Assembly (NCBI GenBank): GCA_036556205.1
Contig: DATBJW010000015.1
Coordinates: 9,674 to 73,673 of the forward strand
Source of the DNA: Gemmatimonadota bacterium
GTDB lineage: Bacteria; Gemmatimonadota; Gemmatimonadetes; JACCXV01
Direction: 5' to 3'
Length of the DNA stretch: 64,000 bases
Of this stretch, positions 4,814 through 49,224 are shown in pieces. The notes beneath the pieces were generated by a model. It searched no databases. It was not told where the DNA came from and saw only the letters and a program-made list of their open reading frames with translations. The position numbers and the translations under genes were made by a program. Numbering within the stretch: the stretch's first letter is position 1; each line of letters begins with the position of its first letter.

Positions 4814-4819
4814 AGCTTC

Positions 4820-6528: not shown

Positions 6529-6571
6529 CGCGTTCACCTCCAGGCGTGAGCCGGCGCCGGACCCCGGCCGC

Positions 6572-8911
<2,340 letters not shown>

Positions 8912-8970
8912 GACGGGAGTTCTTGCTCGCGCTCGCGGGCGGCGGCGCCGATCTTCCCGCTGGAGAGCCA

Positions 8971-26860: not shown

Positions 26861-27439
<579 letters not shown>

Positions 27440-27466: not shown

Positions 27467-27961
27467 CTATTCGCGGAACAGGTTGTCGATCTCGTCCTCG
27501 GCCTCACTCGTGAACTCGCCGCCCAGGCCGGAGCGGCGCGTCGCGCTCTCCGACTGGGCGAAGATCTCACCGAAGATCACGTCCAGCTCCTTGACCGCCC
27601 GTTTCACCCGCAGGCGCACGAGCCCGAGCGTGGTGCGGTCGTCGAACAGGACGACCAGGATCACCCGCTTGCGGATGTCGGCCAGGTACATGCTCTCGCG
27701 CTCCCCCTGGTGGTAGAGCGAAGAAAACTCGGTCTCGCCGATCAGTGAGGCCAGATGGTCGTTGGCCGCGAAGTCCGCGGCCGAGAGCGAGGCGAAGGCG
27801 TTCGTGTCGAAACGCGGCTCCTCGCCCGAGAAGGCGATCATCTGGCCGTTCCGATCCACGAGCATCGTCGTGCGGGCGCTCGCCGAGCTCGTGAGCTGGC
27901 TCAGCTGGCGGGCGATCCGCTGGTAGTCGTCCTCGAGGAAGCTCCAGTTCCCGGCGCTCAT
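27467..27961 (-). CDS. mglB: MglB (Roadblock/LC7 domain, GAP of MglA)
   Basis: Trimmed to MSAGNWSF (start 27961), 164 aa. Roadblock-like core (ARTTMLVDRNGQMIAFSG...ASLSAADFAAN...VILVVLFDD) with an acidic C-terminal tail. Lies immediately upstream of mglA, as in the Myxococcus mglBA operon. Confidence 0.8.
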   Translation of the reverse strand: MSAGNWSFLEDDYQRIARQLSQLTSSASARTTMLVDRNGQMIAFSGEEPRFDTNAFASLSAADFAANDHLASLIGETEFSSLYHQGERESMYLADIRKRVILVVLFDDRTTLGLVRLRVKRAVKELDVIFGEIFAQSESATRRSGLGGEFTSEAEDEIDNLFRE

Positions 27962-28007
27962 CGGCCCATCCGCGGGCTGGGGGTGTTGCCGATCGCTCGG
28001 AGACGGC

Positions 28008-30900: not shown

Positions 30901-33900
30901 TCAAGCCGGATCGGGGCTTTTCCCAAGCCACAAAAGCACTTCCGCCCCCTGCTCCCAGTTCCGGGCCTCGATCGTACCGCCCCACGACTCCACGATCCGG
31001 CGGGCGATGGCGAGCCCCAGCCCGGTGCCGCGCGTCTTGGTCGAGAAATAGGGCTGGAAGAGCCGCGGCAGGTCGTCGGCCGGGATCCCCGGCCCGCTGT
31101 CGCGGACGCGGACCAGGACCCGTCCCGGGGCCGCGTCGTAGTCCAGCTCCACGCGCACCGTTTCCCGTCCCGGGCTTCCGCCGTCCATCGCCTCGCGCGC
31201 GTTCTCGAACAGGTTCACGAGCACCTTCTTGAGCCCGTCGGCCTCGGCCATGACCGCCGCCGGCCGGCCCCTGACCTCGAGCTCGTAGCGCAGCCCTCCG
31301 CCCTGCTGGGCGTAGAGGTCCACCACCTCGCGCAGCGTGCCCGCGGGCTCCAACGGCTCGGGCGCCCCGCTCACCGCGCCGAAGCGGCTGAACTCGCCGG
31401 CGATGCGCTCGAGGCGGCCGATCTCGGCCAGCACGAGGTCCAGGTTCCGCTGCAGCACCGCGGCGAAGTCCGGCGGCGGTTCCGACTGCAGCCGGCGCAG
31501 GTGCTGGAGGGAGAGCTTGATGGGGGTGAGCGGGTTCTTGAGCTCGTGCGCGACCTGCCGCGCCATCTCTTCCCAGGCCAGCGCGCGCTGCGAGGCCAGG
31601 ACGTCCGAGATGTCCTCGAAGACGATGACCAGCCCGCGGCGCTCGCCGCCCTCGCCGTGGAGCGGGGCGAAGGCGAGGTGCAGGATGCGTCCGCCCTGCG
31701 GACCCGGGAGCCGCACCTCGTCCTCGCGGCGCTGGGCCAGCCTCAGGGCGCGCGCCACGCGCCGCCAGAATTCGGCCGGCGCCAGGTCCGGCGCGCGCTT
31801 CCCGATGGCGTCGGGGGTCAGGCTCAGCAGGTCGCGCGCGGCGTCGTTGGCCAGCTGGAGGCGCCCTTCGCTGTCGAGGGCCACGACCCCCGCCCCGGTG
31901 CTGGAGAGGATGGCCTGGATGCGCTCCTTCTCCGCCAGCAGCTCGCCGCGCGAGACCTGGAGCCCGGCCGCCATCGTGTTGAAGGCCGAGAACAGCCGAC
32001 CGAACTCGTCGCTCCGGTCGGGGTCGCGCAGCCGGTAGGCGAGCTCTCCCGTGGCGATGCGGTCGGAACCTTCCTTGAGTGCCGCGAGCGGGCTCGAGAG
32101 CTGGCGCGACACGAGCCAGCTGAAGAGCCCCAGCGCCAGCAGCGAGAGCGCGAAGAGAACGAACAGGACCTGCAGGAGGTCGCGCATGTCGCGCGAGATG
32201 TGGTCGTCGCGCAGCAGCAGGGGGCTGGCCAGGATGTAGGGCGCTCCGCCTTCCGACCACGGGGTCCTGAGGTAGGCGATCAGCACGTCGCGCCGGCCGA
32301 CCGCGGAGCGCTCGGTGGCCAGCCGCTCGTTGCCGTAGCGCAGGCGCCGGTAGAGGTCGCCCGGCATCCGCCGCGAGAAGAGGTTCGCCTGGAAGATCTC
32401 CGGCCGGTTCGAGCCGGCGACCTCGCCGCCCACGAAGACGATCAGGTCCTGGCCCACCACGCGCGCGGCCTCGGGCAGGATCGCCTCGAGCTCGGCTTCG
32501 CCCCCCGCCTCGAGCCGCGGGCCCAGGTAGGCCATGGCTGTCCGCAGCGACTCCTCGGCCAGCGCCCGCGTGGCGGTCTCGATCTGGTGCCGCGTGGTGT
32601 GAAAGCTGATCCAGGAGTAGACGGCGACGGGAACGGCCACGAAGGCCAGCAGCACGCTGAAGACGCGCCCGCGGAAGCTGGCCAGCGGGTTGCGCCAGCT
32701 CCCCGGCCAGGGGACCGGCGAGGATCCCAGCAAGGCATGGTAGAGGACGAGCAGGGCCAGCGCCGCGCCGAGCGTGGTCAGGCACAAGCTCAGATCGTCG
32801 AGGACGTCGGGCAGGTAGGGGGCGAGCGGCAGCGACATCCAGAGCCGGTCGTCGCCCGCACCCGAGGCCAGCGTGAGCGAGGGCTCCGGCGCGGGCGCCG
32901 CCTCGCCGCGATGCACGGCGAAGAGGTAGGGATCGGTCTCGCCCGAGAAGAACACGTCGCGCAGGAAGTAGCCCGCACTCTCCTCCCCGAGCGCGGGCTC
33001 GAGGGACTCCGCCACGAGGGCCACGGCGTAGCGCGCCTCGCCGTCGGGCGAGCGCAAGGGTGCCGTGGTGAAGAGCAGCGTGCGATCGGTCTCGGTCTGG
33101 ACGCGCGTCACGGCACCCAGCGGAACGCGGAGCGCGGCGCGCGCGATCCGCGGCAGCAGGTCCAGGTCGCGGGGCGGGAGCAGCGAGAAGCGGCTCTCGA
33201 TGGCCCCCGACTCGTCCACGACCACCAGGGCCGAAGGGAACGGCAGGTCGCGCAGCGGGGTGCGGGTCCAGGCCGCGAAGGCCGCCGCCTCGCGTCCCGC
33301 GCCCAGATCCTCGAGCGTGGTCGAGCCGCCGGTCAGCCGCTCGCCCGTGAGCTCCAGGTTGTACTCCAGCCACTGGCTCGACGAGCTGCCCACCTCGACG
33401 AGCCGCGCCTCCATGTACTGGCGCAGAGCCCACACCCGCCCCCCGCCGTGCGCGGTGGTGGCCGCGAGCCCCGCCAGCACGCCCGCCACCACCGCGGGGG
33501 CCAGGATCGAGCGCGTCCAGCCGCGGACCGCGAGCGCGGGCTCGAGCGAGAGTCCGGCCAGCCCGAGGCCTCCGGCCATGAGCGAGCTCCAGAGCGCCGC
33601 CGCCAGCAGCGGGCCCGAGGCGCTGGCGGCCGCGCGCAGCAGGTAGACGGCCGCCGCGACCGAGACGAGCACGGCCAGCCCGCAGGCCCACGGCCAGAGC
33701 CGGGCGGCGAGTGCCGCGCCCGCGCCGCTCCGGTCGGCACGCGCCGCGAGCACCACGAGCGTGGCCGCCGAGACCACGATCGCGGCCGCCGCCGCGGCCA
33801 GAGCGGCGAAGAGAAACGCTCCCTCGGGGGTGGAGTAGAGGTACGGCCTGAAGAGGAGCTGGGTCGACGTGTCGCGGATCAGGATCGCGCCGGCGTGGAG

Positions 33901-35235
33901 CAGACGCCGGTCGGCCAGGATCCCCGCCGCGATCAGGAGCAGCGTGACGACCACCGGGGCGGGGGCCGTGACCCTGCGCAGGGCGCCGCCCTCGGGCGCT
34001 GAGGAGCCCGCGGCGGCGCCGGCCGGCCGCGGCACGGTGCGGAAGGCGTCGAGCGCCAGAACGCAGGCGAAGAGTGCCGTGACGAGCAGGTCGGCGGGCG
34101 AGCTCGCGAAGGGTCCGAGGACGCGCGAGGCGAAGAGGAGCGGCGAGGAGAGCGAGCCGGGCAGCAGCGCCCGCAGCAGGTCGCCGGCGCTGATGAGCCA
34201 GCGCGCGACAACGAGGACCAGGGACTTCCCGGCCAATGCCAGCAGCCAGGCGGCCAGGCCGCCGCGCCTCACCGCCGCACCTGCACCCACTCCACCCTCG
34301 ACGAGGCGCCAGACCTCGCGCAGGAGGAGTGCCAGGGCCACCAGCGCGCAGGCCGCGGCGAGGCGCAGCCAGACGCTGCCGCCCGCCGCCGCGGCCGGCA
34401 GGAGCTCCACCGATCCGACGCGCCGCCCGGCCAGGCGCAGCGGCGCGCTGGGGCCGGCCACGGGTGCCGTGGTCACGCCGGGCGCGACGGGGGCACCGGG
34501 CGCGCCCCCGGAGACACCGCGATCGATGAGCACCCGCACGCCGTGCCGCCGCTCGAGCTCGGCCAGCCAACCCCTGGGCGGCAGCCCGAGCGCTTCGATC
34601 GGCGAGCGGCGCAGCCAGGGATCCTCGAGCGCGATCCCCCAGTCGCGCGACAGGGACCAGAGGACGACGCCGGCGCCGTTGGCATCCACGACGAGCGTCG
34701 CCCGCGACGGCGCGCTCGTGAGCCGCAGGCGGGTCGCGCCCCGCTGCGCGTCCAGCGTCTCGCCATACCACGCGACGAGCTCGCCCGTGGGCCCGAAGAG
34801 CTTGACGCCGCGCCCGGCCAGCGGCCGCTCGCGGTCGAGCCGGGCCAGCGCGGCGAAGGCGCCCCTGGGGTTGGCCGGCGAGACCTCGGCGCCCAGGCCG
34901 CGCACGACGGCGCCCAGGAGGGCCGCGTCCTCGCCGAGCCGCTGCTCGAGGGAGCCCGCGATGCGGGCCGCCCGGTCGGACGGCCGGTCGCTCCCGCCGC
35001 CGACGACGGGCAACAGGTGGGTGAAGAGGAGCAGCGCCGCCACGACCGCGAGCGCGCGGCAGAGACGGCCCGAGCCCGAGTCGCCGCGCCAGCCGAGGGC
35101 CGCCAGCGGGATCGCGAGGAGAGCCAGTACGAGGGTCTCGGGCGCCGGATCCGCGAAGGCGGGTACCAGCGCCAGCACCGCCCCGGCGCGCGTCAGGCGC
35201 CGGTCCCGCAGCCCGGCAAGGACCCGCTTCAGCAT
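30901..35235 (-). CDS. Giant polytopic sensor histidine kinase (NtrY-like HAMP-PAS-HisKA-HATPase C-terminus)
   Basis: 1444 aa. About 13 hydrophobic segments and two or three large extracytoplasmic loops fill the first roughly 950 aa. Then HAMP (SSPLAALKEGSDRIATGELAYRL), PAS (ILSSTGAGVVALDSEGRLQLAN), H-box HELKNPLTPIKLSLQHL, N-box NLFENAREAM, G1 VRDSGPGIP and G2 GTGLGLAIARRIV. Confidence 0.9.
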   Translation of the reverse strand: MLKRVLAGLRDRRLTRAGAVLALVPAFADPAPETLVLALLAIPLAALGWRGDSGSGRLCRALAVVAALLLFTHLLPVVGGGSDRPSDRAARIAGSLEQRLGEDAALLGAVVRGLGAEVSPANPRGAFAALARLDRERPLAGRGVKLFGPTGELVAWYGETLDAQRGATRLRLTSAPSRATLVVDANGAGVVLWSLSRDWGIALEDPWLRRSPIEALGLPPRGWLAELERRHGVRVLIDRGVSGGAPGAPVAPGVTTAPVAGPSAPLRLAGRRVGSVELLPAAAAGGSVWLRLAAACALVALALLLREVWRLVEGGVGAGAAVRRGGLAAWLLALAGKSLVLVVARWLISAGDLLRALLPGSLSSPLLFASRVLGPFASSPADLLVTALFACVLALDAFRTVPRPAGAAAGSSAPEGGALRRVTAPAPVVVTLLLIAAGILADRRLLHAGAILIRDTSTQLLFRPYLYSTPEGAFLFAALAAAAAAIVVSAATLVVLAARADRSGAGAALAARLWPWACGLAVLVSVAAAVYLLRAAASASGPLLAAALWSSLMAGGLGLAGLSLEPALAVRGWTRSILAPAVVAGVLAGLAATTAHGGGRVWALRQYMEARLVEVGSSSSQWLEYNLELTGERLTGGSTTLEDLGAGREAAAFAAWTRTPLRDLPFPSALVVVDESGAIESRFSLLPPRDLDLLPRIARAALRVPLGAVTRVQTETDRTLLFTTAPLRSPDGEARYAVALVAESLEPALGEESAGYFLRDVFFSGETDPYLFAVHRGEAAPAPEPSLTLASGAGDDRLWMSLPLAPYLPDVLDDLSLCLTTLGAALALLVLYHALLGSSPVPWPGSWRNPLASFRGRVFSVLLAFVAVPVAVYSWISFHTTRHQIETATRALAEESLRTAMAYLGPRLEAGGEAELEAILPEAARVVGQDLIVFVGGEVAGSNRPEIFQANLFSRRMPGDLYRRLRYGNERLATERSAVGRRDVLIAYLRTPWSEGGAPYILASPLLLRDDHISRDMRDLLQVLFVLFALSLLALGLFSWLVSRQLSSPLAALKEGSDRIATGELAYRLRDPDRSDEFGRLFSAFNTMAAGLQVSRGELLAEKERIQAILSSTGAGVVALDSEGRLQLANDAARDLLSLTPDAIGKRAPDLAPAEFWRRVARALRLAQRREDEVRLPGPQGGRILHLAFAPLHGEGGERRGLVIVFEDISDVLASQRALAWEEMARQVAHELKNPLTPIKLSLQHLRRLQSEPPPDFAAVLQRNLDLVLAEIGRLERIAGEFSRFGAVSGAPEPLEPAGTLREVVDLYAQQGGGLRYELEVRGRPAAVMAEADGLKKVLVNLFENAREAMDGGSPGRETVRVELDYDAAPGRVLVRVRDSGPGIPADDLPRLFQPYFSTKTRGTGLGLAIARRIVESWGGTIEARNWEQGAEVLLWLGKSPDPA

Positions 35236-35284
35236 CGCTCGCGCCCGGGTCGTCCCGCTCGCACGTCGGAGAGACCGCGCCCCG

Positions 35285-36475
35285 TCAGGAGTCTCCGCGG
35301 GCGGTGCCCGGCCCGGCCGAGGGCGGCGAATCCGCCGCGCCTTCGTCGTCCGCCGCGCCCGCTGCCCCGTTTCCCCCCGAGCGTCCGGGCCGGCCCGCCT
35401 CGGCCGCCCCGCGCGCCGGCGGGAACTCGTTGAAGTAGAAGTTGCCCTGGATCACGAGCTTGGGATCCGGGAACCCGGTCGGCAGAGGCTCGAAGTCGGC
35501 CGACCCGGAGACGGCGTCCGGCGCCACGTGACGCAGCTCGAGCACGCCCTGGTGGCCGACGATCGCGACCGACTCCAGCTGCCCGCTGGGCAGGATCGTG
35601 AAGCGCACCTGGGTCGTCCAGGCGGCGATCCCGTACCAGAAGGCGCTGGGGAGTATCGTCCACGTGTAGTCCTCGATCTGCCGCTTGAGCCGCGTCATGT
35701 AAGGCGCGTAGTCCCAGGCGTACGTGCTCAAGCTGAAGTCCTCGTCGAAGCGCGCGCGCGTCAGGCGGTTGTCCACCTGCGGCAGGCCCCGGCGACCCGT
35801 GCCGGGGGCGCCCGCGTTCCGCGGCGGCGCGCTGGCGGGCGGCAGGGTCACTTCGTGGCGCGGGAGGGCGAGGCGACTGTCCCCGAGCGATGAGCCCGTC
35901 CCCACCGGGGGCGCCTGAGCGAGCCGGCTCGGATCCGCTCCCTGGGCCAGCTCGCCCGAGCTGCCGGGCTCGACACCGCTCGCCGCGTCCGGCTGGTCGG
36001 CGGCCCCCGGCGCCTCTGCCTGCGCGCCCCCGGCTGCCGGCGGGCGAGCCTCCTGCGAGGCCCTGGCGGGCGGCTGGGCGCCGGGAGCGGCCCGCTCACG
36101 CGGACCGTCGTCGCGGCCGCCCTCCCCGGGTGTCGGGTTCGGCAGGCTCGTCTCGCCGCGGTTGAACGGGTCGCCTTCGGGAAGGTCGCGCGGGCCGCGG
36201 TCGGCCGCCCGCGAGTCGCGCTCGGAGACCAGGTTCGTGGGCTCCTCGGGCGCCCGCTCCGGGGCGCCGGAGGCGTCCACCAGCATCCTGGGCGCCTCCG
36301 CGGGGTTCAGGAGCCGCACGTTGACCGGCTCGGGGTTCGGGAAGAGCTCGGCCAGCCTCGCCGTCGCGCCCTCGTCCCTGGGCGCGGCGAACCCCGTGAC
36401 CACGAGCACCAGGATCAGCGCGTGGAGCAGGAGCGAGAAGACGAAGGGCGAGATGCGGCCGTCGCGTCGGAGCAT
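35285..36475 (-). CDS. TonB-like protein (N-terminal anchor, Pro/Ala/Gly-rich linker, TonB_C-like domain)
   Basis: N-terminus ISPFVFSLLLHALILVLVV, then a long low-complexity proline-rich spacer. The C-terminus TTQVRFTILPSGQLESVAIVGHQGVLELRHVAPDAVSGSADFEPLP resembles a TonB C-terminal fold. Confidence 0.5.
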   Translation of the reverse strand: MLRRDGRISPFVFSLLLHALILVLVVTGFAAPRDEGATARLAELFPNPEPVNVRLLNPAEAPRMLVDASGAPERAPEEPTNLVSERDSRAADRGPRDLPEGDPFNRGETSLPNPTPGEGGRDDGPRERAAPGAQPPARASQEARPPAAGGAQAEAPGAADQPDAASGVEPGSSGELAQGADPSRLAQAPPVGTGSSLGDSRLALPRHEVTLPPASAPPRNAGAPGTGRRGLPQVDNRLTRARFDEDFSLSTYAWDYAPYMTRLKRQIEDYTWTILPSAFWYGIAAWTTQVRFTILPSGQLESVAIVGHQGVLELRHVAPDAVSGSADFEPLPTGFPDPKLVIQGNFYFNEFPPARGAAEAGRPGRSGGNGAAGAADDEGAADSPPSAGPGTARGDS

Positions 36476-36656
36476 GACCCGCGGGGGTGAAGGGCCCCTG
36501 CCGGGCGCGCGGGCGCGCGCGAAAGGGGCCTCCCGGGCAATATAGCGCCCGGGGGACCCGTCAGCTTCCGTACCGAGGCTGGGGTCGCCGGTTCCCTCGG
36601 CGCGCGTCTCGTCGGGGAACCGGCGGAGGATCGAAGGTCGGGAAGGGCGCGGCCGC

Positions 36657-38138
36657 TCAGAACCCTCCGGCGTGGGCCTCTTCGGCCTTGCCGGGCGCGT
36701 TGCCCTCCACGAAGTAGCTCTGGCAGGCGCGATCCAGCAGGGTCTTCGACAGCACGGCCGGGACGCCGTAGAAGTTGGCGTAGTCCACGAGCTGGTCCAT
36801 CAGGTCGCGCGGGTGGCAGGAGCGTGGCTGGAGGCCCATCTCGCCGTAGTAGCGCTTGTACAGGTAGGTCACCGCCTCGGGGACGAACTTGATCGCCTTC
36901 GCGCGGCAGACGTTGAACAGGATCTGGCTGAACTCTTCGCGGGTCGGGTCGTCGGCCTTGACCTTGTAGCGGATGCGACGGAAGAAGGCCTCGTCCACCA
37001 GCTCGTCGGGGTCCAGGTTCGTCGCGAAGATGAGCAGGCAGTCGAAGGGCACCGGGAACTTCTTCCCGGTGTGCAGCGTGAGGTAGTCCACGCGCTTCTC
37101 GAGCGGCACGATCCAGCGGTTCAGCAGGTCGACCGGCTGCACCAGCTGGCGCCCGAAGTCGTCCAGGATGAACACGCCCCCGTTCGACTTCACCTGGAAG
37201 GGCGCCTCGTAGAACTTGGCGATCGGGTTGTAGCGCAGGTCCAGCATGTTCAGAGTGAGCTCGCCCCCGGTGAAGACCGTGGGCCGTCGGGTGTGGCACC
37301 AGCGCGGGTCGGTGGACTCGCGGCCGCCCTTCCAGAGCCCCGTGGACGGCACCTCGCCTTCCTCGGGGTCGCTCTCCTGGTGGTAGACGGGATCGAAGAC
37401 CTTGATGATCTGGCCTCCCACCTCGATCGCGTACGGCACGTAGATCTCGCCCCCCAGGAGGCCCGCGATCGTCTCCGCCACGAGCGTCTTCCCGTTCCCG
37501 GCCGGCCCGTAGAGGAACAGCGACTTCCCGGAGTTCACCGCCGGGCCGAGCATCATCAGGAAGCGGTTCGAGAGCACCAGGTGCGAGAACCCGCGCCGCA
37601 GGTCGTCCCACGAGATGCGGGTCGTGTTCACGGTCTGGCGGCGCACCCAATCCGCGTAGACGTCCAGCGGCACCGGCGCGGGCCCCACGTACTGGCAGCG
37701 ATCCAGGGCCTCGCGCGCGCGATCGCGCCCGTGGCCGGTGATCGCGTAGCGGTAGAAGGCGCGACCGTTTCCGTCCACGGTCTTCACCTCCACCTCCTTC
37801 TCACGCTTCAGGTGCTCGAGCAGCGCGTCCACGACGGTGAACGGGAGTGCCATCTGCTGCGACGCCTGCAGGGCGTTCAGGTCGCCCTGGGAATAGAAGG
37901 TCTTGATCAAGAGCTCGAGGACCAGATCCTCGGGAAGCCCGGTCTCCTCGAACGTGCGCGGGGCCTGCGGGAAGTCCGCCGCCTCGATCGCGAAGTCGAC
38001 GGCCGTAGGCAGCGGAGGGTCGCCGAGAACGGGACCCGCGTCGAAGTCCGAGGCGGACGCGGCAGGGGGCCGTTCGGATGTCGGAGCGGAGGGGCGGCCG
38101 GCAACGGCGGCCAGCTGACGGACGGCTTCGGGGGTCAT
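36657..38138 (-). CDS. AAA+ ATPase (MoxR/AAA_5-like core with N-terminal helical domain), translationally coupled to the Tad TPR gene
   Basis: Trimmed to MTPEAVRQ (start 38138, ATGA overlap with the upstream gene). Walker A LYGPAGNGKTLVAE, Walker B VFILDDFGRQ, then LLNRWIVPLEKRVDYLTLHTGKKFPVPFDCLLIFATNLDP..LVDEAFFRRIRYKV. No hydrophobic segments. Confidence 0.8.
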   Translation of the reverse strand: MTPEAVRQLAAVAGRPSAPTSERPPAASASDFDAGPVLGDPPLPTAVDFAIEAADFPQAPRTFEETGLPEDLVLELLIKTFYSQGDLNALQASQQMALPFTVVDALLEHLKREKEVEVKTVDGNGRAFYRYAITGHGRDRAREALDRCQYVGPAPVPLDVYADWVRRQTVNTTRISWDDLRRGFSHLVLSNRFLMMLGPAVNSGKSLFLYGPAGNGKTLVAETIAGLLGGEIYVPYAIEVGGQIIKVFDPVYHQESDPEEGEVPSTGLWKGGRESTDPRWCHTRRPTVFTGGELTLNMLDLRYNPIAKFYEAPFQVKSNGGVFILDDFGRQLVQPVDLLNRWIVPLEKRVDYLTLHTGKKFPVPFDCLLIFATNLDPDELVDEAFFRRIRYKVKADDPTREEFSQILFNVCRAKAIKFVPEAVTYLYKRYYGEMGLQPRSCHPRDLMDQLVDYANFYGVPAVLSKTLLDRACQSYFVEGNAPGKAEEAHAGGF

Positions 38139-39316
38139 CACGGACCTTGGGGTCGGAGGGTGGACGGAGCGGCGGCCGGCGGCGACTCGCGCCGCGCGCC
38201 CACCTTGGCGGGCTGCGCCGAGTGCGGGACCGCGGCGCCGCTCTCGGGCGCGGCCTCGCCGGAGGCGCCGGCGGGCACGGTCGGTTCGGGCTCGACGGCC
38301 GGGGCGGAAAGCGCTTGCAGCGCGCGCTCGTCGGAGAGGCGGCGGCGGGCGTCCCGCAGGTTGCGGGCGATCTCGCGGTCGCCGGGGGCTATGACGGCGG
38401 CCTTCTCGAAGGCCAGCGCCTCGGCTTCGGTCTCGCCACGGAAGCGGTGCACGAGGCCCAGGTTGTTCCAGGCCTGCGCTTCGGGGCCCGCCCGGCGGAA
38501 GGCGGCCAGGGCGCTGTCGGGGAGGCCCTGATAGCCGGCCGCCAGGCCCAGGTTGTTGAGCAGGGCCGGCTCGCCGGGCGCCAGGGAGAGGCCGCGCGCG
38601 AACTCGTCGGCGGCCTGCGCGTAGCGCTCCTGGAGCAGCAGGTTCCAGCCCAGGTTGTTGGCGTAGTCCCAGCGCCGGGGATCGAGCTCCACGGCCTCGC
38701 GCAGGGCGTCCTCGGCCTCGGGGTAGCGCTTCAGGAGGTCCAGGGCGATCCCGCGGTAGCTCCAGGCCAGCGCGTCGCCGGGCGTCACGCGGCACGCCTC
38801 TTCCAGGTACGGCAGGCCGAGCTCCGGCGCCCCCGCGTCCACCCACAGGCGGCCCATCTCGCGGCCGATCTCGGGGTTGCGGGGGTCGAGAGAGAGCGCC
38901 TCCTCGTAGTGGCGCAGGGCCAGGTCGTAGATGCGCTCGCGGTGGTAGGCGCGGGCGAGGGCGAGCTGGGCCGCGCCGCTATGCGGGTCGCCCGCCGCTT
39001 GCGAACGCGCGTCGGTGACCGCAGGCGTGTCGGCGCCGCCCGACTGGGCGGGGCGGATCTTCACCTTGCCGTCTTCGTCCTTGAGCTCGACCAGCTGCTC
39101 GTCCGTGAGGCCCGGCTCCGCCGACGAGACGGCCACGGCCGCGCTCGAATCGGCGGGCCCGGCCGCCGGGGTCTCGGCGGGGGCCGCGTTCGCTGGGCGC
39201 TTTCCTTCGGGGAGGGGGGTAATGAAGGGAGAGCGCTCCAGCTCCACCCGCTTCGTGCACCCGACGGCCAATGCCGCGCCGATCACGAGAGCCATCCTGA
39301 CTTTGCGCTGCATCAT
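38138..39316 (-). CDS. TPR-repeat lipoprotein (TadD-like position)
   Basis: Trimmed to MMQRKVRMALVIGAALAVGC (lipobox). Several TPR units (ALARAYHRERIYDLALRHYEEALSLDPRNPE..., AWSYRGIALDLLKRYPEAEDALREAVELDP...). Follows tadC. Confidence 0.65.
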   Translation of the reverse strand: MMQRKVRMALVIGAALAVGCTKRVELERSPFITPLPEGKRPANAAPAETPAAGPADSSAAVAVSSAEPGLTDEQLVELKDEDGKVKIRPAQSGGADTPAVTDARSQAAGDPHSGAAQLALARAYHRERIYDLALRHYEEALSLDPRNPEIGREMGRLWVDAGAPELGLPYLEEACRVTPGDALAWSYRGIALDLLKRYPEAEDALREAVELDPRRWDYANNLGWNLLLQERYAQAADEFARGLSLAPGEPALLNNLGLAAGYQGLPDSALAAFRRAGPEAQAWNNLGLVHRFRGETEAEALAFEKAAVIAPGDREIARNLRDARRRLSDERALQALSAPAVEPEPTVPAGASGEAAPESGAAVPHSAQPAKVGARRESPPAAAPSTLRPQGP

Positions 39317-39363
39317 GCCCCCCCGAGCAAGATGAGTTGACGCCCGACGTCCGCGCCCGCGGT

Positions 39364-40299
39364 CTACTTCACGACGCCCGACAGCTGCTCCAGGATGTGC
39401 AGGATCGCCGGGCCCAGGATGACCACGAACATGGCCGGGAAGATGAAGATCACGAGCGGGAACACGAGCTTGATCGTGGTCTTGGCGGCGGCCTCCTCGG
39501 CGCGCTGCCGGCGCTTCGTGCGCAGCGTGTCGGAGTGGACCCGCAGCGACTGGGCGATGCTGGTTCCGAAGCGATCGGTCTGGATCAGCATGGCCACCAG
39601 CGCCTGCAGATCCTCCACACCCGTGCGCTCGGACAGGTGCCGCAGCGCGTCGGGCCGCGACGTGCCGGCGCGCATCTCCAGGTTCACGAGCCCGAACTCC
39701 TCGGCGATGGGCGGGCACGCGTGCGACATCTCTTCGGCCACGCGGATCAGCGCCTGGTTCAGGCCCAGGCCGGCCTCGACGCAGATCACGAGCAGGTCGA
39801 GCGCGTCGGCGAGGCCCAGCCGGATCGCCTCCTGGCGCTTGCGGATGCGGCTCTTGAGCAGGAAGCGCGGCAGGAAGTACCCGAGCCCGGCGCTGACCAG
39901 GAGCAGCGGCGTCGCGCGCAGCACGGCGGTATGGAGCGCCACACCCATCAGCACGACCAGCGCCGGCATCAGGAGCGCTCCCAGGATGCGCGCGCCGTAG
40001 TAGAGCGCTGGACCCTCCTCCTGGCGGATGCCGGCCCGCACCAGGGCCTTGCGCGTCTCGCCCAGGTCCTTGCGCGTGCTCGCCGCGCGCTTGCCCAGCG
40101 TGCGCAGCATGCCCTCGAGCTTGTCGCGCTGGGCGCGCCGGCGGTGGACGGCCGCCACGGACTCGGTGAAGGGCCCCAGGTTCTGGATCTCGGCCAGCCG
40201 GCCGCGCAGCGCCGTGGGACGGGGGCTCAGCGAGATGACCACGCCGTAGGCGAGGGTCGCGACGGTGGCGAAGACAAGAAAGGCGATCAGGACGAGCAT
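39364..40299 (-). CDS. tadC: Tad pilus platform protein TadC (T2SS F family)
   Basis: 311 aa. N-terminal TM, a cytoplasmic GspF-like domain, and C-terminal TMs (KLVFPLVIFIFPAMFVVILGPA). Confidence 0.85.
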   Translation of the reverse strand: MLVLIAFLVFATVATLAYGVVISLSPRPTALRGRLAEIQNLGPFTESVAAVHRRRAQRDKLEGMLRTLGKRAASTRKDLGETRKALVRAGIRQEEGPALYYGARILGALLMPALVVLMGVALHTAVLRATPLLLVSAGLGYFLPRFLLKSRIRKRQEAIRLGLADALDLLVICVEAGLGLNQALIRVAEEMSHACPPIAEEFGLVNLEMRAGTSRPDALRHLSERTGVEDLQALVAMLIQTDRFGTSIAQSLRVHSDTLRTKRRQRAEEAAAKTTIKLVFPLVIFIFPAMFVVILGPAILHILEQLSGVVK

Positions 40300-40308
40300 G
40301 CGCGCTCC

Positions 40309-41285
40309 TCAGACCTTGATGCGAATGATCTTGCGGATGATGAAGAACCCCGTGATCTGCATGATCGCCGCCCCCGCGATCATCACGCGCCCGATCTCCT
40401 TCCGGAACAGGATCATCATGTACTCGTGGTTCATGGCCGCGATGACCACGCCCAACAGGATCGGCAGGCAGCCCAGCAGGTAGCCCGTGAGCCGGCCCTG
40501 GGCGGTGTAGACTCGCACCTGGCGCAGGATCTTGAACCGCTCGCGGATCGTGTAGGCGATCTTGTCCAGGATCTCGGCCAGGTTGCCGCCGACCTCGCGC
40601 TGGATCAGCACGGCGGTGACGAAGATGCGCAGGTCCACCAGGTCGATGCGCTCCATCAGGTTCAGGAGCGAGTCCTTGAGCGCCAGACCGAACTTCTGCT
40701 CCTCGAAGCAGCGCCGGAACTCCTCGCCGACGGGGTCCGGGCACTCCTCCCCCACCAGCTGGAAGCCGGTCGAGAACGCGTGCCCCGCGCGGATGGCGCG
40801 GGAGAGCAGGTCGATGGCCTCGGCGAAGTTGGCCTCGAAGGCCTCGATGCGCTTCTTCTTGCGCCGCAGCAGCCACATGTAGGGCAGGACGCCGGCCCCG
40901 GCCGCCGCCACCATCGGGAAGATGACCGGCAGGTGCAGGAGCAGCGTCACCAGGCAGGCGACCGTCGCCAGCGCCAGCGACAGCAGGTAGAAGGACCCCA
41001 CCTTCATCCGCACCGCGCCCTGCTCCATCAGGATTCGCAGGTCTTCGACCTTGGGCACCGCCTTGAGGATCAGGCGCATGAGCGGCACGTCGGAGAGCTG
41101 CTCCTCGCGCAGGATCTTCACGAGCCCCTCTTCCTCCATGAAGCTCTCGAAGGAGAGGTTGCGCATGCGGTCGGCGACCTTGCTCCGCATCGCCTTCTCC
41201 TTGCGCGCCTCGCGCAATCCGAAGAGGACGTAGACCAGACAGGCCATGAACAGCCCGCCCAGGAGCGGCACCAGCCAGGTCGTCA

Positions 41286-41286
<1 letters not shown>
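40309..41286 (-). CDS. tadB: Tad pilus platform protein TadB (T2SS F family)
   Basis: 325 aa with the same architecture. Immediately downstream of tadA with a 1-nt overlap. Confidence 0.85.
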
Positions 41287-42894
<1,608 letters not shown>

Positions 42895-42905
<11 letters not shown>

Positions 42906-44190
42906 GGGCGGCTACCTCCTCGCGCTCGCGCGGCTCGACCGCGGCCTTCGCGCGGCGGCTGAAGAGCTTGCCGAGCACGCTCGGCTTGGCCCCGTTGGCG
43001 GGTGCCGCGGCCCCGTCCCCGGCTGCCCGCGCCAGGCCCACGTCGCGCGCCAGGGCCTCGCCCAGGGACGTGACCTCCCGGGCGATCGGCGCGTCGGAAA
43101 CGGCGGCGAAGGGCTCGCCCGTGTTGATGGAGTGGATGACGGTGTTGTAGTCGTTCGACAGGACGTGAAAGAGGGGGAAGCTCAGGGTCTGCTCGATCTG
43201 GTCCAGCTTGATCGGCCCCCGCGTCGAGTAGCGGTTCACGATCAGCTTGATGGACTCCTTGGCGTAGCCCAGGCGGTCCAGCACGTGGAAGCAACGCTGC
43301 GTGTTGCGCAGGCTGGGCAGGTCCACGTTCGCGACCAGGCAGATGCGGTCGGCCTGGTCGAAGGCCGAGAGCGTGTAGTCGTAGAACGCGTTCGAGGTGT
43401 CCACGACCACGCAGTCGAACTTGGACTTGAGGAAGTTGAAGATCTGCCGGATCTGCTCGGGCGTGAGGGTCTCGCTGCGCTCCGGATTGGCGGGCGCGGC
43501 GAGGAGCTGGATCCCGGAGGGGTGCTCGACCAGGAAGCTCATCAGCAGGTTCTCGTCGATCCGGTGCAGGTTCTTCGAGAGGTCGAGGATGTTGTACTTG
43601 GGCTTGAGGCCCAGGAACAGCGCCACGTCGCCCATCTCGAGGTCCAGGTCCACCAGCACCACGCGCTTGCCGCTCTTCCTGTGCAGGGCCACGGCGGTAT
43701 TCGCGGCGACCATGGTGGCGCCGCTCCCGCCCTTGGTGCTGAAGAAGGCCAGGATCTGGCCCGCCGAGCTGCGCGCCGCCGGGACCGCGATCTTGGTCGC
43801 GGCCCGGTCCAGCGCCTCGTTCAGCGCGGCCTTGTCGAACGGCAGCGTGAAGTACTCCGAGATCCCGGCCCGCATGGCCTGCAGCAGCAGCTCCTGCGAT
43901 GTCGAGCTGCCCACGCCGAAGACGCGCCCGCCGTGCCCGGCCGACCGGTCGGCCAGCATGTGCGCCAGCTCGAGCGCGCTCTTGCGGTCAGAATCGAGGT
44001 CGAGGAAGACGACGCCGGGCTTGAGGACCTTGATGTCCTCGAGGTACCCGGCGTCGATCATCGTGAAGGGATGCGTGAGCTCGACGTCGAGCCGCACGTC
44101 GGAACGGTCGGCCAGGTGCTCGCGCACCGCCTCCCGCAACTCACGGCGCGGGCTGATGACGACGGCGGACACCTGGAGCGACTCGTCCAT
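42895..44190 (-). CDS. tadZ: TadZ/CpaE (receiver-like N-domain + ParA/MinD-type ATPase)
   Basis: Deviant Walker [17 protein letters not shown], plus [11 protein letters not shown]. The N-terminal roughly 120 aa are CheY-like. Confidence 0.85.
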
Positions 44191-44229: not shown

Positions 44230-45594
44230 CTAGGGCCGGGCGCCGTCGGTGTGCCCCATCTTGCCCTGGAAGCCCTCCGTGTTGCCCTTGAAGTTCTCGT
44301 TGAACTGCGGCAGCTCGGGCACCGGCGACTCCCCGCTCACGATGTAGGGGGTCACGAGCACGACCAGCTCGGTCTGGCGCAGGCGGAACTGCCGGCTCTT
44401 GAACAGCCAGCCCAGGATCGGGATGTCGCCCAGGACGGGCAGCTTGTCGATGACCTCGGCCTGCTCGTTCCCGATCAGACCTGCGATCGAGAAGGTCTGG
44501 CCGTCGCGCAGCTCGACCGTGGTGGAGGCGCGACGCGTGTTCAGGGCCGGGATCACGAAGCCCGCGAAGTTCAGACCGTTCGCGAAGTCGAGCTGGCTCA
44601 CCTCGGGGGCGACCCGCAGGTTGATGAGCCCGTTGCCGACCAGCAGCGGCGTGAAGTTCAGCCGGATACCGAACTCCTTGAACTCGATCGTGGTCGTGAA
44701 CGTGGTCCCCGACGGCTGCACGATCGGGTACGGGAACTCGCCGCCCACGAGGAAGCTCGCCGAGTCGCCGTTGGCCGCGACCAGGTTGGGCTCGGCCAGC
44801 ACCTGCAGGAGGCCCCTCTCCGAGAGCGCGCGGATGAACAGGCCCACGGCGGCGTCGGGCTCGAAGAAGTAGAGGTTCAGAGCGTCCGAGAAGGCCTGGT
44901 CCGGGCCCGGGGGGTTGTTCAGGAAGTTGCCGCCCGTGCCGCCCGGCAGGGCCATGCCGATGTGACCCTCGGTGTCGCCGCGCAGGTTGAACGGATCGAT
45001 GCGCGTGGCCTTGAGGCCCCACTCCTGGAGCTCCTGGCGGTTGACCTCGGCGATTCGCACCTGGAGCAGGATCTGGCGCGAGTCCGTGACCTCGAAGGCA
45101 TTGATGACCCGGGTCGAGTCGGCCGCGTAGGTGCGGGCCAGCTGCATCGCCCTCGAGACGGTGTAGGGATCGCTCACCGGCCCCGACAGCACGACCAGGT
45201 CGCGGTCCACCTGCACCTGGATCGGCTGGCCGGGGAACATCTCGGCGATGCGCGCCTGCAGGAGCTGGGCGTCGTTGCTCACCACGACGTCGTAGATGCG
45301 GTTCGAGCCCCCGCCCGAGAGGATCAGGCTGGTCACGCCGGGCTTCTTGCCGTTCACCAGGACCTCGCGCGGCGTGAGCACGACCGCGTCGAGGACCTCG
45401 GGGTTGCCCACCGAGACCCGGGCCAGGCCCTGGGGGAAGGACACGATCGAGGACTTGCCGGCGGTGATCTCGAGCGTCTGCCCAATGGGCTGCTCGACGA
45501 TGGCGGGCTCCTGCGACCGGAGCCCCGCCGGCGCGAGGGCGAGCAGCAGGGCGACGAGCGCCCCGCGGACGGGTTTCGCGAACCTGCGCTGCAT
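44230..45594 (-). CDS. cpaC: Tad secretin CpaC/RcpA
   Basis: Start trimmed to MQRRFAKPVRGALVALLLALAP (signal peptide). BON-like and secretin N domains. C-terminal secretin core LPVLGDIPILGWLFKS...ELVVLVTP. Confidence 0.9.
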   Translation of the reverse strand: MQRRFAKPVRGALVALLLALAPAGLRSQEPAIVEQPIGQTLEITAGKSSIVSFPQGLARVSVGNPEVLDAVVLTPREVLVNGKKPGVTSLILSGGGSNRIYDVVVSNDAQLLQARIAEMFPGQPIQVQVDRDLVVLSGPVSDPYTVSRAMQLARTYAADSTRVINAFEVTDSRQILLQVRIAEVNRQELQEWGLKATRIDPFNLRGDTEGHIGMALPGGTGGNFLNNPPGPDQAFSDALNLYFFEPDAAVGLFIRALSERGLLQVLAEPNLVAANGDSASFLVGGEFPYPIVQPSGTTFTTTIEFKEFGIRLNFTPLLVGNGLINLRVAPEVSQLDFANGLNFAGFVIPALNTRRASTTVELRDGQTFSIAGLIGNEQAEVIDKLPVLGDIPILGWLFKSRQFRLRQTELVVLVTPYIVSGESPVPELPQFNENFKGNTEGFQGKMGHTDGARP

Positions 45595-45669: not shown

Positions 45670-46503
45670 TCAGAACGTCTCCTTCGTCTTCTTGTCGCCC
45701 AGGATGACCTCGACCTGCGTCGAGGGTCGCGGGGCGACGACCCGCCGCGGCGCGTTCGCCGCCGGGGCCGGCCGGCTGGGCTCGCTGACGAGCTCGGCGG
45801 CCTGGATGCCCTCCGTCGAAACCGAGTCCATATCCATCGCGTTGCGCAGCGCCATCTGGATCTTCCCCTCGGTCGACGCGAGCGTGAGCTTCTCGGACTC
45901 CTCGGGCGTCACCAGCAGCGTGATCACGGTCACGGTCTGCGGCTTGCCTTCCGCGTCCTTCTCGATCTTCTGGCCGGAGGCCAGCACCTTCACGTTCTGC
46001 AGGATCAAACGGGTCGTGGCGGGCTTCTGCGAGTCTCCTTCCGTCTCCGGGTTGAGGGTGACCAGCACGTCGACGCGCGTGCCGGGGAGCACGAAGCCGG
46101 CGACGCCGACGACCTCGTCGACTTTGACGCTGACCGCCCGCTTGCCTTCGGGGATCACGACCGGCAGCCCGCCGCCGGCGCCTTCCGGGGCGAGCTTGGA
46201 GGAGAGGATCGGCTCGTTGGCGGCCACGTCCACGATCAGGCCGCGTCCGACCACGTCCTTCTCGGTGGCGAAGTAGCCGTCAGGCAGGGTGCCCGTGGTC
46301 CAGGCCACCGTCTTGACGTGCCCTTCGGTGAGGAACGTGCCCAGCGGAATCTGCGCGGCAGCCACGACCACGGTTCCAGTTGGGGTTTGCTCCGCGGCGA
46401 CGGCCGGCAGCGGGCGCTTCAAGTAGTTGAAGGTCAGCATGCTGGCCGCAAGGCCGGTGATGCCCGCTACGACGAGGGCGACCAGGAGCTTCTTGCGGTT
46501 CAT
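45670..46503 (-). CDS. cpaB: Flp pilus assembly protein CpaB/RcpC
   Basis: N-terminal anchor MNRKKLLVALVVAGITGLAA, a SAF-like domain and a beta-rich C-terminal region. Confidence 0.85.
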   Translation of the reverse strand: MNRKKLLVALVVAGITGLAASMLTFNYLKRPLPAVAAEQTPTGTVVVAAAQIPLGTFLTEGHVKTVAWTTGTLPDGYFATEKDVVGRGLIVDVAANEPILSSKLAPEGAGGGLPVVIPEGKRAVSVKVDEVVGVAGFVLPGTRVDVLVTLNPETEGDSQKPATTRLILQNVKVLASGQKIEKDAEGKPQTVTVITLLVTPEESEKLTLASTEGKIQMALRNAMDMDSVSTEGIQAAELVSEPSRPAPAANAPRRVVAPRPSTQVEVILGDKKTKETF

Positions 46504-46518: not shown

Positions 46519-47046
46519 TCAGAGGTTGCCGAGATGGGACGCGAAGGTGAACGCCATCCCGCCCGCGATCGCCAGCCCGTAGGGCAGCACGATCCCGCGG
46601 CTCGATCCCAGGCTCACTGCCGGACAGGGAATGAGCCCGCGCCCACGCCAGTGCAGGAACAGGGTCCACAGGTTGTGAGCGGTCATGGCCCAGGCCCGGC
46701 GCAAAACGATACATGCCAGAGCCATGCCGCCGCCCACGAGCGCCGTGGCGACGAGCAGCTGCAGGCCGGCCTCCGGGCCGAGGAGCGCCCCACAGCCGGC
46801 CAAGAGCTTCACGTCGCCCCCGCCCATCGCCTTGAGGCGGAAGAGGATCAGCGCCGGAAAACCGGCGGCGAAGGCGCCCACCACACCCACCGCGAGGTCC
46901 GCAGGGCCGTGCAGCAGCGTGCGCAGCGCCAGGCCCGCGGCCAGGGTCCCGAGGGTCAGCCAGTTCGGGATCCGGCGCGAGCGCAGGTCGAGGCCGGCGG
47001 CCAGGGTGGCGGCGAGCAGCGCGATCCAGAGCAGCAGAGGGTCCAC
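46519..47046 (-). CDS. cpaA: Prepilin peptidase CpaA/TadV (A24 family)
   Basis: 175 aa and polytopic. LDLRSRRIPNWL and GGGDVKLLAG carry the two catalytic Asp motifs. Confidence 0.85.
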   Translation of the reverse strand: MDPLLLWIALLAATLAAGLDLRSRRIPNWLTLGTLAAGLALRTLLHGPADLAVGVVGAFAAGFPALILFRLKAMGGGDVKLLAGCGALLGPEAGLQLLVATALVGGGMALACIVLRRAWAMTAHNLWTLFLHWRGRGLIPCPAVSLGSSRGIVLPYGLAIAGGMAFTFASHLGNL

Positions 47047-47139: not shown

Positions 47140-47310
47140 CTACGGCGTGACGAGCTTGCCCGTGATGTCGTTGAAGACCGTCTGAACCTGGCCGCCCAGC
47201 GCGGCCACAGCGGTGATCACCACGAGAGCGATCAGGGCGATCAGGAGGGCGTACTCCGCCAGGTCCTGGCCCTCGTCGTCGCGCAGAAGGTTCATGAAAA
47301 GCTGCAGCAT
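47140..47310 (-). CDS. flp: Flp-family type IVb pilin (56 aa)
   Basis: Below the track size cutoff, so translated manually: MLQLFMNLLRDDEGQDLAEYALLIALIALVVITAVAALGGQVQTVFNDITGKLVTP. G/QDLAEY is the Flp prepilin cleavage motif (G/XXXXEY). RBS AGGAGG lies 6 nt upstream. Confidence 0.88.
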   Translation of the reverse strand: MLQLFMNLLRDDEGQDLAEYALLIALIALVVITAVAALGGQVQTVFNDITGKLVTP

Positions 47311-47345: not shown

Positions 47346-47522
47346 TCAGCTCCCGAACGGAAGCGTGGCCACGATGTTGTTGTAGAATCCGACCAGTCCG
47401 CCGCCGAACGCGGCGACTGCGCCGATAACGGCGATGGCGATCAGCCCGATCAGCAACGCGTACTCGGCCAGGTCCTGGCCAGACTCGTCTGCCACGAGGT
47501 TCCCAGCCTGCGGGCCAGCCAT
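47346..47522 (-). CDS. flp: Flp-family type IVb pilin (58 aa)
   Basis: Trimmed from track ORF 47346..47705: MAGPQAGNLVADESGQDLAEYALLIGLIAIAVIGAVAAFGGGLVGFYNNIVATLPFGS. Same G/QDLAEY motif. RBS GGAGG upstream. Confidence 0.88.
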   Translation of the reverse strand: MAGPQAGNLVADESGQDLAEYALLIGLIAIAVIGAVAAFGGGLVGFYNNIVATLPFGS

Positions 47523-48086: not shown

Positions 48087-49040
48087 TCAGTTGTCGAGCC
48101 GGTAGTCGCGAACCTTGTTCAGCAGCGACTTGTAGCTCACACCCAGCTCCAGCGCCGCCGCTTTCTTGTTCCAGCGCGTGCGCTCGAGCACGCGCTGGAT
48201 CGCGCGGGCCTCGGCCTTCTGAGCGGCGACCTTCGAGATCTCGGCCAGCTTGGTCCCCTCGGGATAGTCCTCGGTGTCGTAGCCGTTGCGCGACTGGCGG
48301 TGCCAGATCTTCTCCTCGAGCTCGCGGCGGATCGTGCTCTCGTCTTCCATCACCAGGAAGCGGCGGATGACGCGCTCGAGCTCGCGCACGTTGCCCGGCC
48401 AGGAGTACAGCTTGAAGAGATCGATGAGGCTCGCCCGCAGCTGCTTGATCTTGCTCGAGTAGAAGGGCGAATAGAGCTGCATGATGTGCTGCGCGAGCAG
48501 GCCGATGTCCTCGGGGCGCTGGCGCAGGGGCGGGAGCGTGACGGCGACCGCGGCACGCTCCTCGGCGATGCCGCGCAGCAGCTTCTTGACGGCGCCCTCG
48601 TGGTCGGGCGTCTCGCTGGAGAAGATGAGCCGCGGGGCTTCGTCCGGCGGGTCGCCGTCGAAGAGCGCGAGCGTGGTCCCGAAGCGCTCGCAGACCTCGG
48701 GGCTGAAGGTCTCGACACCGTTGACGAACAGTGTGCCGCGGCGCGCGCGCTCGAAGGGTGTCGTGGCCTCGGGCGCGTGACCGAAGAGCTCCGTGCCGAG
48801 CTGCCCGCGCGGGACCACGTAGCAGTTCACGCGTACGAAGGAGCCCGCCGAGCGCGGCGAGAGCCGGTGCAGCGTGTGCGCGAGCGCCTCCTTGCCGAGA
48901 CCCTTCTCACCCGTGAGCACGACCGGCACGCGGGTGGGTGCCACCTCCATCAGCTTGTCTCGGATCTGGAGCACCCGGTCGTTGACCGAGAGCAGAAAAT
49001 CGGGATGGGCGCCTTCGTCCCAGTAGGATGTCGATTCCAT
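48087..49040 (-). CDS. Sigma-54 activator-like (bEBP-like) Fis-family regulator with degenerate AAA+ core, no sensory domain
   Basis: Trimmed to MESTSYW (start 49040). The AAA+ core aligns to the NtrC family (VVLTGEKGLGKEALAHTLH, ELFGH, PPLRQRPEDI, WPGNVRELE). The C-terminal HTH_8 is RTRWNKKAAALELGVSYKSLLNKV. GAFTGA is absent (ELFGHAPEATTPFERA), and Walker B is LFVNGV instead of LFLDEI. Confidence 0.85.
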   Translation of the reverse strand: MESTSYWDEGAHPDFLLSVNDRVLQIRDKLMEVAPTRVPVVLTGEKGLGKEALAHTLHRLSPRSAGSFVRVNCYVVPRGQLGTELFGHAPEATTPFERARRGTLFVNGVETFSPEVCERFGTTLALFDGDPPDEAPRLIFSSETPDHEGAVKKLLRGIAEERAAVAVTLPPLRQRPEDIGLLAQHIMQLYSPFYSSKIKQLRASLIDLFKLYSWPGNVRELERVIRRFLVMEDESTIRRELEEKIWHRQSRNGYDTEDYPEGTKLAEISKVAAQKAEARAIQRVLERTRWNKKAAALELGVSYKSLLNKVRDYRLDN

Positions 49041-49111
49041 CAACGACGTCGTGTGCGGGTGGGTGGAAGCCGATTTCAGGAAGGGAGAACAGCAAGAACG
49101 ATGCCCGAAAT

Positions 49112-49148
49112 GGAACGAGGGAGCCCACTTTTGGGGCTCCCTCGTTCC
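49112..49148 (-). terminator. 15-bp perfect-stem hairpin downstream of the Phe-rich protein gene
   Basis: GGAACGAGGGAGCCC-acttttg-GGGCTCCCTCGTTCC. On the minus strand it is followed by ATTTCGGG. Confidence 0.55.
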
Positions 49149-49224
49149 CACGGTCTGTCTTCGGTTTCGCCGGCGAAGTGGCTTCCTCGTCCGGTCCGCC
49201 GGGACTCTACGGCCGTCCCCCGCT

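Follow-up and report, generated by a model that had tools for sequence, protein, structure and literature searches.

Do the two genes that stand behind a secretin-encoding operon in a Gemmatimonadota genome make a device for assembling that secretin, or do their products belong to different systems? The question is raised by a 64,000-nt stretch of contig DATBJW010000015.1 (hereafter the window), where an operon for a Tad (type IVc) pilus is followed by a gene for an AAA+ ATPase (36657-38141) and then by a gene for a 396-residue TonB-like bitopic membrane protein (35285-36475). All coordinates are positions in the window unless another locus is named, all features of the window described here lie on its minus strand, and residue numbers refer to the AAA+ or the TonB-like protein as stated. 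According to the original prediction, the two proteins form a module similar to GspA/GspB (ExeA/ExeB) that helps the Tad secretin CpaC to assemble through the peptidoglycan. The co-occurrence data largely refute this reading. With moderate confidence, we propose instead that the AAA+ protein forms a hexameric ring on the cytoplasmic side of the Tad machine, where it would have an accessory or regulatory role, and that the TonB-like protein is a separate, kinase-linked component.

The evidence that ties the AAA+ protein to Tad comes from gene order. A scan of GTDB species genomes gave at least 589 loci with the AAA+ gene, of which the best 80 were analysed by tblastn with the Tad proteins of the window. 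Wherever the upstream flank of a Gemmatimonadota or Acidobacteriota locus was long enough, a complete same-strand tad operon ended immediately before the AAA+ gene, and five contigs annotated with Pfam concurred on this terminal position, several of them with 4-nt overlaps between the genes. The upstream neighbour was usually the gene for the platform protein TadC or a DUF192 gene, and seldom a gene for a tetratricopeptide-repeat (TPR) protein as in the window. The distance from TadC to AAA+ was from -12 to 104 nt at eight loci, seven of Acidobacteriota and one of Gemmatimonadota, about 400-590 nt at most other loci, where the DUF192 gene lies between, and about 1.8-1.9 kb where the TPR gene intervenes. 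Since the upstream gene varies and the terminal position is constant, the conserved feature of the AAA+ gene is to be the last gene of the tad operon, rather than to be paired with the TPR gene or with the secretin. The DUF192 (PF02643) gene, found between TadC and AAA+ in loci L001, L003, L088, L089 and others, commonly shares 1-4 nt with the gene on either side; the window has no such gene.

In the window, the gene before AAA+ encodes a TPR lipoprotein (38138-39316), and the junction reads ccGTGATGAcc, with the TPR stop codon TGA at 38140-38138. The AAA+ gene may start either at GTG 38141, which gives a 4-nt GTGA overlap and 494 residues, or at ATG 38138, which gives a 1-nt overlap and 493 residues. 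The original prediction described the overlap as ATGA; the sequence is not literally that, although an overlap of the coupling type, of 1 or 4 nt, does exist. The AAA+ start overlaps the preceding gene by 4 nt also in relatives L084, L086, L088 and L089; in L084 and L086 this is the form that the gene calls adopt. The claimed link of the AAA+ gene to Tad is thus borne out by the overlap in the window together with the terminal position, kept throughout Gemmatimonadota and Acidobacteriota wherever the flank sufficed.

Outside these two phyla, proximity to Tad or TadA genes takes other forms. In Chloroflexia, a Roseiflexus metagenome-assembled genome (MAG; L071, 8216-12754) carries a TPR gene, a DUF6812 gene, the AAA+ gene and an orphan TadA-like T2SSE ATPase gene, with no other tad genes nearby; adjacency of AAA+ and TadA was also found at two further Chloroflexota loci (L058 and L073, one of them from Herpetosiphonaceae), making three in all. 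In a Dehalococcoidia MAG, the AAA+ gene and a tad cluster are divergent, and in that cluster CpaB directly adjoins TadZ, so that no room is left for a secretin. In Geomonas paludis (L068, NZ_BLXY01000003.1, 9815-16638), a homologue with 48% identity is divergent from a tad operon and a sigma-54 activator, and on its other side lie genes of a contractile injection system (Pvc16_N, sheath, tube); these were met at no other locus, and a link to contractile injection was set aside as chance adjacency. A cytoplasmic role in Tad is suggested because the constant neighbours of the AAA+ gene encode inner-membrane and cytoplasmic Tad components, and because in Chloroflexia the gene is paired with a lone TadA-like ATPase.

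The TonB-like gene has a very different distribution. Its relatives number 14, all within the narrow clade of the window (the single-sequence search and the profile search gave the same 14), against thousands of AAA+ homologues. Even inside this clade the adjacency of the two genes is broken in L085 and L086; in the latter (3987-8987), a gene for a 749-residue spermine-synthase/methyltransferase-like protein stands between them. What the TonB-like gene keeps is its downstream partner, a gene for a 1,444-residue histidine kinase with multiple transmembrane segments and HAMP and PAS domains (30901-35235, assigned with Pfam), which follows directly in all five contexts available (the window and L084-L087). 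From the TonB-like stop to the kinase start there is a gap of 49 nt in the window, 11 nt in L084, 65 nt in L086 and 5 nt in L087, and an overlap of 4 nt in L085. Downstream neighbours of the AAA+ gene vary, being small open reading frames (ORFs), a membrane J-domain protein or a transmembrane protein, and clusters of flanking ORFs that pointed to a conserved downstream gene were rejected as overlapping-frame artefacts. In L088, a distant Gemmatimonadota contig, the slot of the TonB-like gene between AAA+ and the kinase-dnaX-ybaB-recR block is filled by the J-domain gene. This gene (L088, 10428-11063) encodes a membrane-anchored J-domain (DnaJ) protein and overlaps the AAA+ stop by 4 nt, and DnaJ-domain genes also lie a few kb from the AAA+ gene in L001 and L003.

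What can be said for a pair that aids CpaC assembly is that the genes are adjacent in the window behind a secretin-containing operon, and that the TonB-like protein has an ExeB-like topology, with an N-in anchor, a spacer rich in Pro and Ala and a globular end in the periplasm; as in the GspA/ExeA and GspB/ExeB systems of Aeromonas and Vibrio, a P-loop ATPase and a Pro-rich protein of TonB topology are encoded by a secretin-containing locus. ExeA, a membrane protein, combines an ATPase of the AAA_22 type with a periplasmic domain for peptidoglycan binding. The ATPase of the window, however, is soluble, belongs to another AAA+ lineage and co-occurs with its neighbour in one clade only. Neither a transmembrane segment nor a peptidoglycan-binding domain was found in it (no PG_binding match in Pfam), and the window protein had no match to AAA_22 (PF13401) at E <= 0.1; sub-threshold matches were seen in 9 of 37 family members, with a best E-value of 5e-4. 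No homology to the GspB family appeared either, as the 14 TonB-like members gave only TonB_C, TonB_2 and HutF_N in Pfam at E <= 0.1. With a soluble ATPase on one side and fewer than 10 cytoplasmic residues in the TonB-like protein on the other, the two barely share a compartment. The AAA+ gene, moreover, also lies beside the secretin-less Tad cluster and the orphan TadA-like genes described above. Finally, published work (PMC10499894) assigns the Tad secretin a pilotin of the TadD type, and the TadD-like TPR lipoprotein encoded at 38138-39316 could be the pilotin of CpaC here. We therefore regard a GspA/GspB-like function of the pair as very improbable: the genes do not co-occur beyond one narrow clade, the ATPase is soluble and lacks the domains of ExeA, and the context is wrong. 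The caution in the original prediction that the proteins are not obviously homologous to ExeAB was justified.

The TonB-like protein itself starts with an N-in membrane anchor (residues 8-31, 36383-36454; Kyte-Doolittle maximum 2.61) that carries S14xxxH18, the TonB signature, with S14 and H18 invariant in 14 of 14 members. The anchor is followed by a conserved LVSERDxRAAD...GEGGR stretch, a variable spacer rich in Ala, Pro, Arg and Gly, and a conserved C-terminal domain (residues ~250-348, 35432-35728). Of the predicted architecture, the anchor and the Ala/Pro linker (16% Ala and 15.5% Pro) stand as described; the TonB_C-like end fell below threshold in each of the 14 members (best 5e-5), with a score of 18.7 for the window protein against a cut-off of 24.6. 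The model of this domain (pLDDT, the predicted local distance difference test score, 70-87) has the order helix-strand-strand-helix-strand, and its top fold matches were the C-terminal domains of TonB, HasB, FusB and TolA, none of them significant (E >= 0.07). With the TonB/TolA family it thus shares the N-in SxxxH anchor, the Pro/Ala spacer and the fold order of the C-terminal domain, and it differs in the sub-threshold TonB_C match, the additional LVSERDxRAAD...GEGGR motif, the pairing with a giant kinase and the lack of any ExbB/ExbD seen in the window. No candidate for an ExbB/ExbD (or TolQ/TolR) motor was found among the ORFs of the window, which were inspected by eye and not by an exhaustive hidden Markov model scan; such a motor may have its genes in another part of the genome. 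The protein is best read as a divergent bitopic member of the TonB family, a lineage-specific neighbour of the tad operon that is unrelated to it and probably linked to the kinase.

The AAA+ protein has no transmembrane segment, as had been predicted: its best 19-residue Kyte-Doolittle window reaches 1.15, compared with 2.61 for the TonB-like anchor. All motifs quoted in the original prediction were found, namely GPAGNGKT (residues 211-218), ILDDFGRQ (324-331), LLNRWIVPLEKRVDYLTL (338-355) and IFATNLDP (370-377). Conservation was examined in 37 family members. In Walker A (GPAGNGKT, 37485-37508), G211, G214, N215, G216 and K217 are invariant, and in Walker B (ILDDFGRQ, 37146-37169), where Asp replaces the usual catalytic Glu, D326 and D327 are invariant throughout the family; such a DD Walker B suggests a slow and switch-like ATPase rather than a fast motor. 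A VFTGGEL hairpin (residues 288-294, 37257-37277) occupies the position equivalent to pore loop 1 or to GAFTGA of sigma-54 activators, with V288, G291, G292, E293 and L294 invariant and F289 and T290 not. The sensor 1 and arginine-finger region, IFATNLDP...EAFFRRI (residues 370-389, 36972-37031), has invariant T373, N374, R387 and R388 and aligns with the second region of homology of spastin and Vps4. The PRxCHPRD motif of the lid (residues 438-445, 36804-36827) is invariant as well. H253, H356, C411, C441, H442 and C472 are invariant or nearly so, and these Cys and His residues could form a metal or redox site.

An AlphaFold model computed from 37 homologues (mean pLDDT 72) places about 55 disordered residues at the N-terminus, followed by a winged-helix-like domain (residues 57-150, 37689-37970; pLDDT 91-95, helix-helix-helix-strand-strand-helix), linker helices and a single AAA+ module, which carries hairpin insertions in the interval between Walker A and Walker B and ahead of sensor 1. 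The N-terminal part had been described as a helical domain of roughly 170 residues, and this description gives way to the leader, the winged-helix-like domain and the linker helices of the model. Membership in the AAA+ superfamily is supported both by the motifs, invariant in the 37 members with Walker B as DD, and by Foldseek, which matched the model to many AAA+ rings with a probability of 1.0. The best fold matches in PDB were 8p49, RuvB, LonB and the Cdc48 and 26S proteasome ATPases; a viral fold library returned only generic AAA+ matches.

Assignment to a narrower family failed at several levels. No Pfam or NCBIfam model matched the AAA+ protein at cut-off, and below threshold the 37 members matched AAA_16 (37/37), Sigma54_activat (35/37), AAA (27/37), AAA_5 (25/37) and bpMoxR (16/37). 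The label MoxR-like finds some support in the last of these; however, it is too specific, because no model reached its cut-off and the best folds lie elsewhere, MoxR being missing from the first 50 matches in PDB. There was also no AAA_3 match, and no VWA gene adjacent in the window. Sequence searches of PDB, run both with the single sequence and with the family profile, reached classical AAA proteins only at the level of Walker A and the second region of homology, and were discarded as a basis for assignment. IteA/IetA identity, tried with NCBIfam and PADLOC, yielded only partial matches far below threshold, which we did not take as membership. The best structural match, 8p49 (Q8U0N8 from Pyrococcus furiosus; E 8e-11), was aligned over the whole target and shares with the AAA+ protein a flexible N-terminal domain, a single AAA+ ring and the lack of a Pfam assignment. 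Experimentally, 8p49 is hexameric with a flexible N-domain, and the paper gives no function (bioRxiv 10.1101/2023.06.09.544317). The two differ in that identity is just 14-15% and the TM-score just 0.34-0.50, and no function was transferred.

The family is large. At least 8,000 homologues were returned by a word-indexed search, with 45-55% identity in other phyla, and an exhaustive profile search at E <= 1e-30 gave at least 1,397 clusters at 50% identity; the homologues carry no more specific name than "ATP-binding protein" or "predicted ATPase with chaperone activity". A neighbour-joining tree of the family mostly tracks taxonomy. Among the members found in a representative search, a few (P0189, P0185 and P0197) have N-terminal FHA or HDOD domains, and these fusions hint at regulation by signalling; the Kil Tad-like system of Myxococcus is likewise rich in FHA domains (PMC8460266). 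Control of the Tad role of the AAA+ protein by Ser/Thr phosphorylation is possibly implied by the FHA-fused relatives. Several other members have unannotated extensions, of 100-380 residues at the N-terminus or about 100-200 residues at the C-terminus.

From these data a mechanism may be sketched in which the AAA+ protein would sit as a hexameric ring on the cytoplasmic side of the Tad machine and, as an accessory ATPase, would regulate or remodel TadA/CpaF, TadZ or the TadB/C platform. The data show how the genes are built, which domains they encode, how large the family is and where its genes lie; that the ring is hexameric, which protein it acts on and how the pilus is affected we infer, and the reading as a whole relies on gene context. 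A more specific version can be put forward only tentatively, and we consider it rather doubtful: the family would be a dedicated second cytoplasmic ring ATPase of a Tad subclass found in Acidobacteriota, Gemmatimonadota, and some Chloroflexota and Desulfobacterota, docking on TadA/CpaF or TadB/C through the winged-helix domain and gating assembly, retraction or turnover of the pilus. Several observations weigh against a Tad role in either form. About 45 loci from Anaerolineae and other Chloroflexota, and in addition the loci from Nitrospirota and Myxococcota, have no tad gene within 10 kb, and the neighbours there are unrelated (GDPD, GH3, RecJ, ABC transporters, Fic); as most orthologues from Anaerolineae, Nitrospirota and Myxococcota lack a nearby tad gene, the family is not strictly dependent on Tad. 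A close relative, L085 (8800-11008), keeps the TPR, TonB-like and kinase genes and has no AAA+ gene there, the tad operon being otherwise syntenic. The structural model, too, is of moderate confidence at a pLDDT of 72 and poor in the insert regions.

As an alternative, the AAA+ protein may have a general housekeeping task, remodelling a partner that has nothing to do with the pilus, and its place behind the tad operon in two phyla would be inherited synteny with no bearing on function. In favour of this, the family is very large and highly conserved (about 50% identity between phyla), its tree suggests vertical descent, and most loci outside Gemmatimonadota and Acidobacteriota have unrelated neighbours. 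Yet at several loci the AAA+ start overlaps the stop of the tad gene before it, the terminal position is kept while the upstream gene changes among TadC, DUF192 and TPR, and proximity to Tad or TadA recurs independently, in different arrangements, in Geomonas, Dehalococcoidia and Chloroflexia, all of which makes a housekeeping role unlikely in our judgement. We give still less credence to the idea that the AAA+ protein is a transcription regulator resembling bacterial enhancer-binding proteins (bEBPs), in which the winged-helix N-domain would bind DNA and control flp/tad expression, maybe complementing a degenerate activator upstream. With the bEBP core (Sigma54_activat; NtrC, PspF) it shares the motif order, the loop inserted after Walker A and before Walker B at the site of GAFTGA, the hairpin before sensor 1 and the "ATN...(F)RR" pattern; Sigma54_activat is the commonest specific sub-threshold Pfam match (best 5e-6), and hhalign sets VFTGGEL on the GAFTGA of a Geomonas sigma-54 activator. 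The first gene of the run that contains the tad operon encodes a sigma-54-activator-like regulator (48087-49151, from Pfam): its Sigma54_activat match covers only positions 5-109 of 168, GAFTGA and an acidic Walker B are missing by eye, the Walker B region reading LFVNGVE, and AAA_lid_14 and HTH_8 are also matched. A sigma-54-like -24/-12 element, GGGCACGCCCGTTGCT (47650-47635), lies about 115 nt upstream of the flp1 ATG with one mismatch to TGGCAC-N5-TTGCW. Against this, the AAA+ protein stays below the Pfam cut-off (16.4 bits against 20.2), has VFTGGE in place of GAFTGA with F289 and T290 not invariant, has DD in Walker B, and differs from bEBPs also in its N-terminal winged-helix-like domain and in the lack of a C-terminal helix-turn-helix (no HTH_8 match); the hhalign result is weak (E 0.005, probability just 6.7%), and promoter-like matches with up to two mismatches occur in the window at the level of chance (15 found, 15.2 expected). 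The family is, besides, abundant in Chloroflexota, many of which lack sigma-54. A tblastn search with the degenerate regulator against the loci was uninformative on co-occurrence.

Returning to the accessory Tad ATPase that we favour, the operon that it would serve is complete, and its presence upstream of the gene pair was confirmed by a Pfam match for every component. Codon-position GC content and Pfam delimit a single minus-strand gene run in the window (GC about 72%; closest protein relatives in Gemmatimonadota MAGs), which opens with the regulator described above and is closed by dnaX, ybaB and recR beyond the histidine kinase. The regulator is followed by two Flp pilin genes (47346-47522 and 47140-47310; Flp_Fap), a prepilin peptidase (46519-47046; Peptidase_A24), CpaB/RcpC (45670-46503; RcpC, 6e-33) and the CpaC/RcpA secretin (44230-45594; Secretin, 1e-46, with T2SS-T3SS_pil_N and BON). 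Then come the ParA-like TadZ/CpaE (42895-44190; CbiA, AAA_31), the secretion ATPase TadA/CpaF (41286-42905; T2SSE, 2e-65), the platform proteins TadB (40309-41286; T2SSF) and TadC (39364-40299; T2SSF), and the TPR lipoprotein (TPR_1 and TPR_2, 1e-22), which has a signal peptide and an AVGC lipobox. Both genes of the pair exist where they had been predicted: the GC content at third codon positions, 0.93 for AAA+ and 0.92 for TonB-like, is typical of coding sequence, and both have strong homologues, the AAA+ gene being further supported by the fold search. A scan of 34900-39600 for terminators and promoters gave nothing informative between the genes.

Two further groups of genes in the window may be recorded. 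Just downstream of dnaX-ybaB-recR lie genes for an MglA-like small GTPase (Arf-family match) and an MglB-like Roadblock/LC7 protein (26861-27439 and 27467-27964), a pair that is syntenic in relatives L084, L085 and L087. At 59123-63994, genes for three paralogues of about 450-600 residues follow one another in tandem and overlap. The first and second proteins share the N-terminal motif PDLRVAFSGPYVVQ-DARQH-FW-RRF; the first of the three genes gave no match in a Pfam scan.

Tad pili are thought to run on one bifunctional ATPase, CpaF/TadA. A single ATPase is likewise stated for the Kil system of Myxococcus (PMC8460266), and our literature search found no AAA+ component of Tad or Tad-like systems; the operon of the window would thus represent a Tad variant with an extra conserved ATPase of an uncharacterised family. 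As an analogy only, one may think of ArlH/FlaH, a second and slow ATP-binding protein that is encoded together with the secretion-ATPase motor ArlI/FlaI of the archaellum and modulates it, although ArlH is RecA/KaiC-like, unlike the AAA+ protein, and the two are not homologous. The negative result on the gene pair keeps the ExeA/ExeB analogy from spreading into annotation. If the proposed role is true, the AAA+ protein that closes tad operons in two abundant phyla of soil bacteria would be a new candidate for a regulator or remodeller, bearing on the question of how CpaF/TadA is switched and regulated, and its role would be the first functional handle on a large family for which neither Pfam nor NCBIfam has a model.

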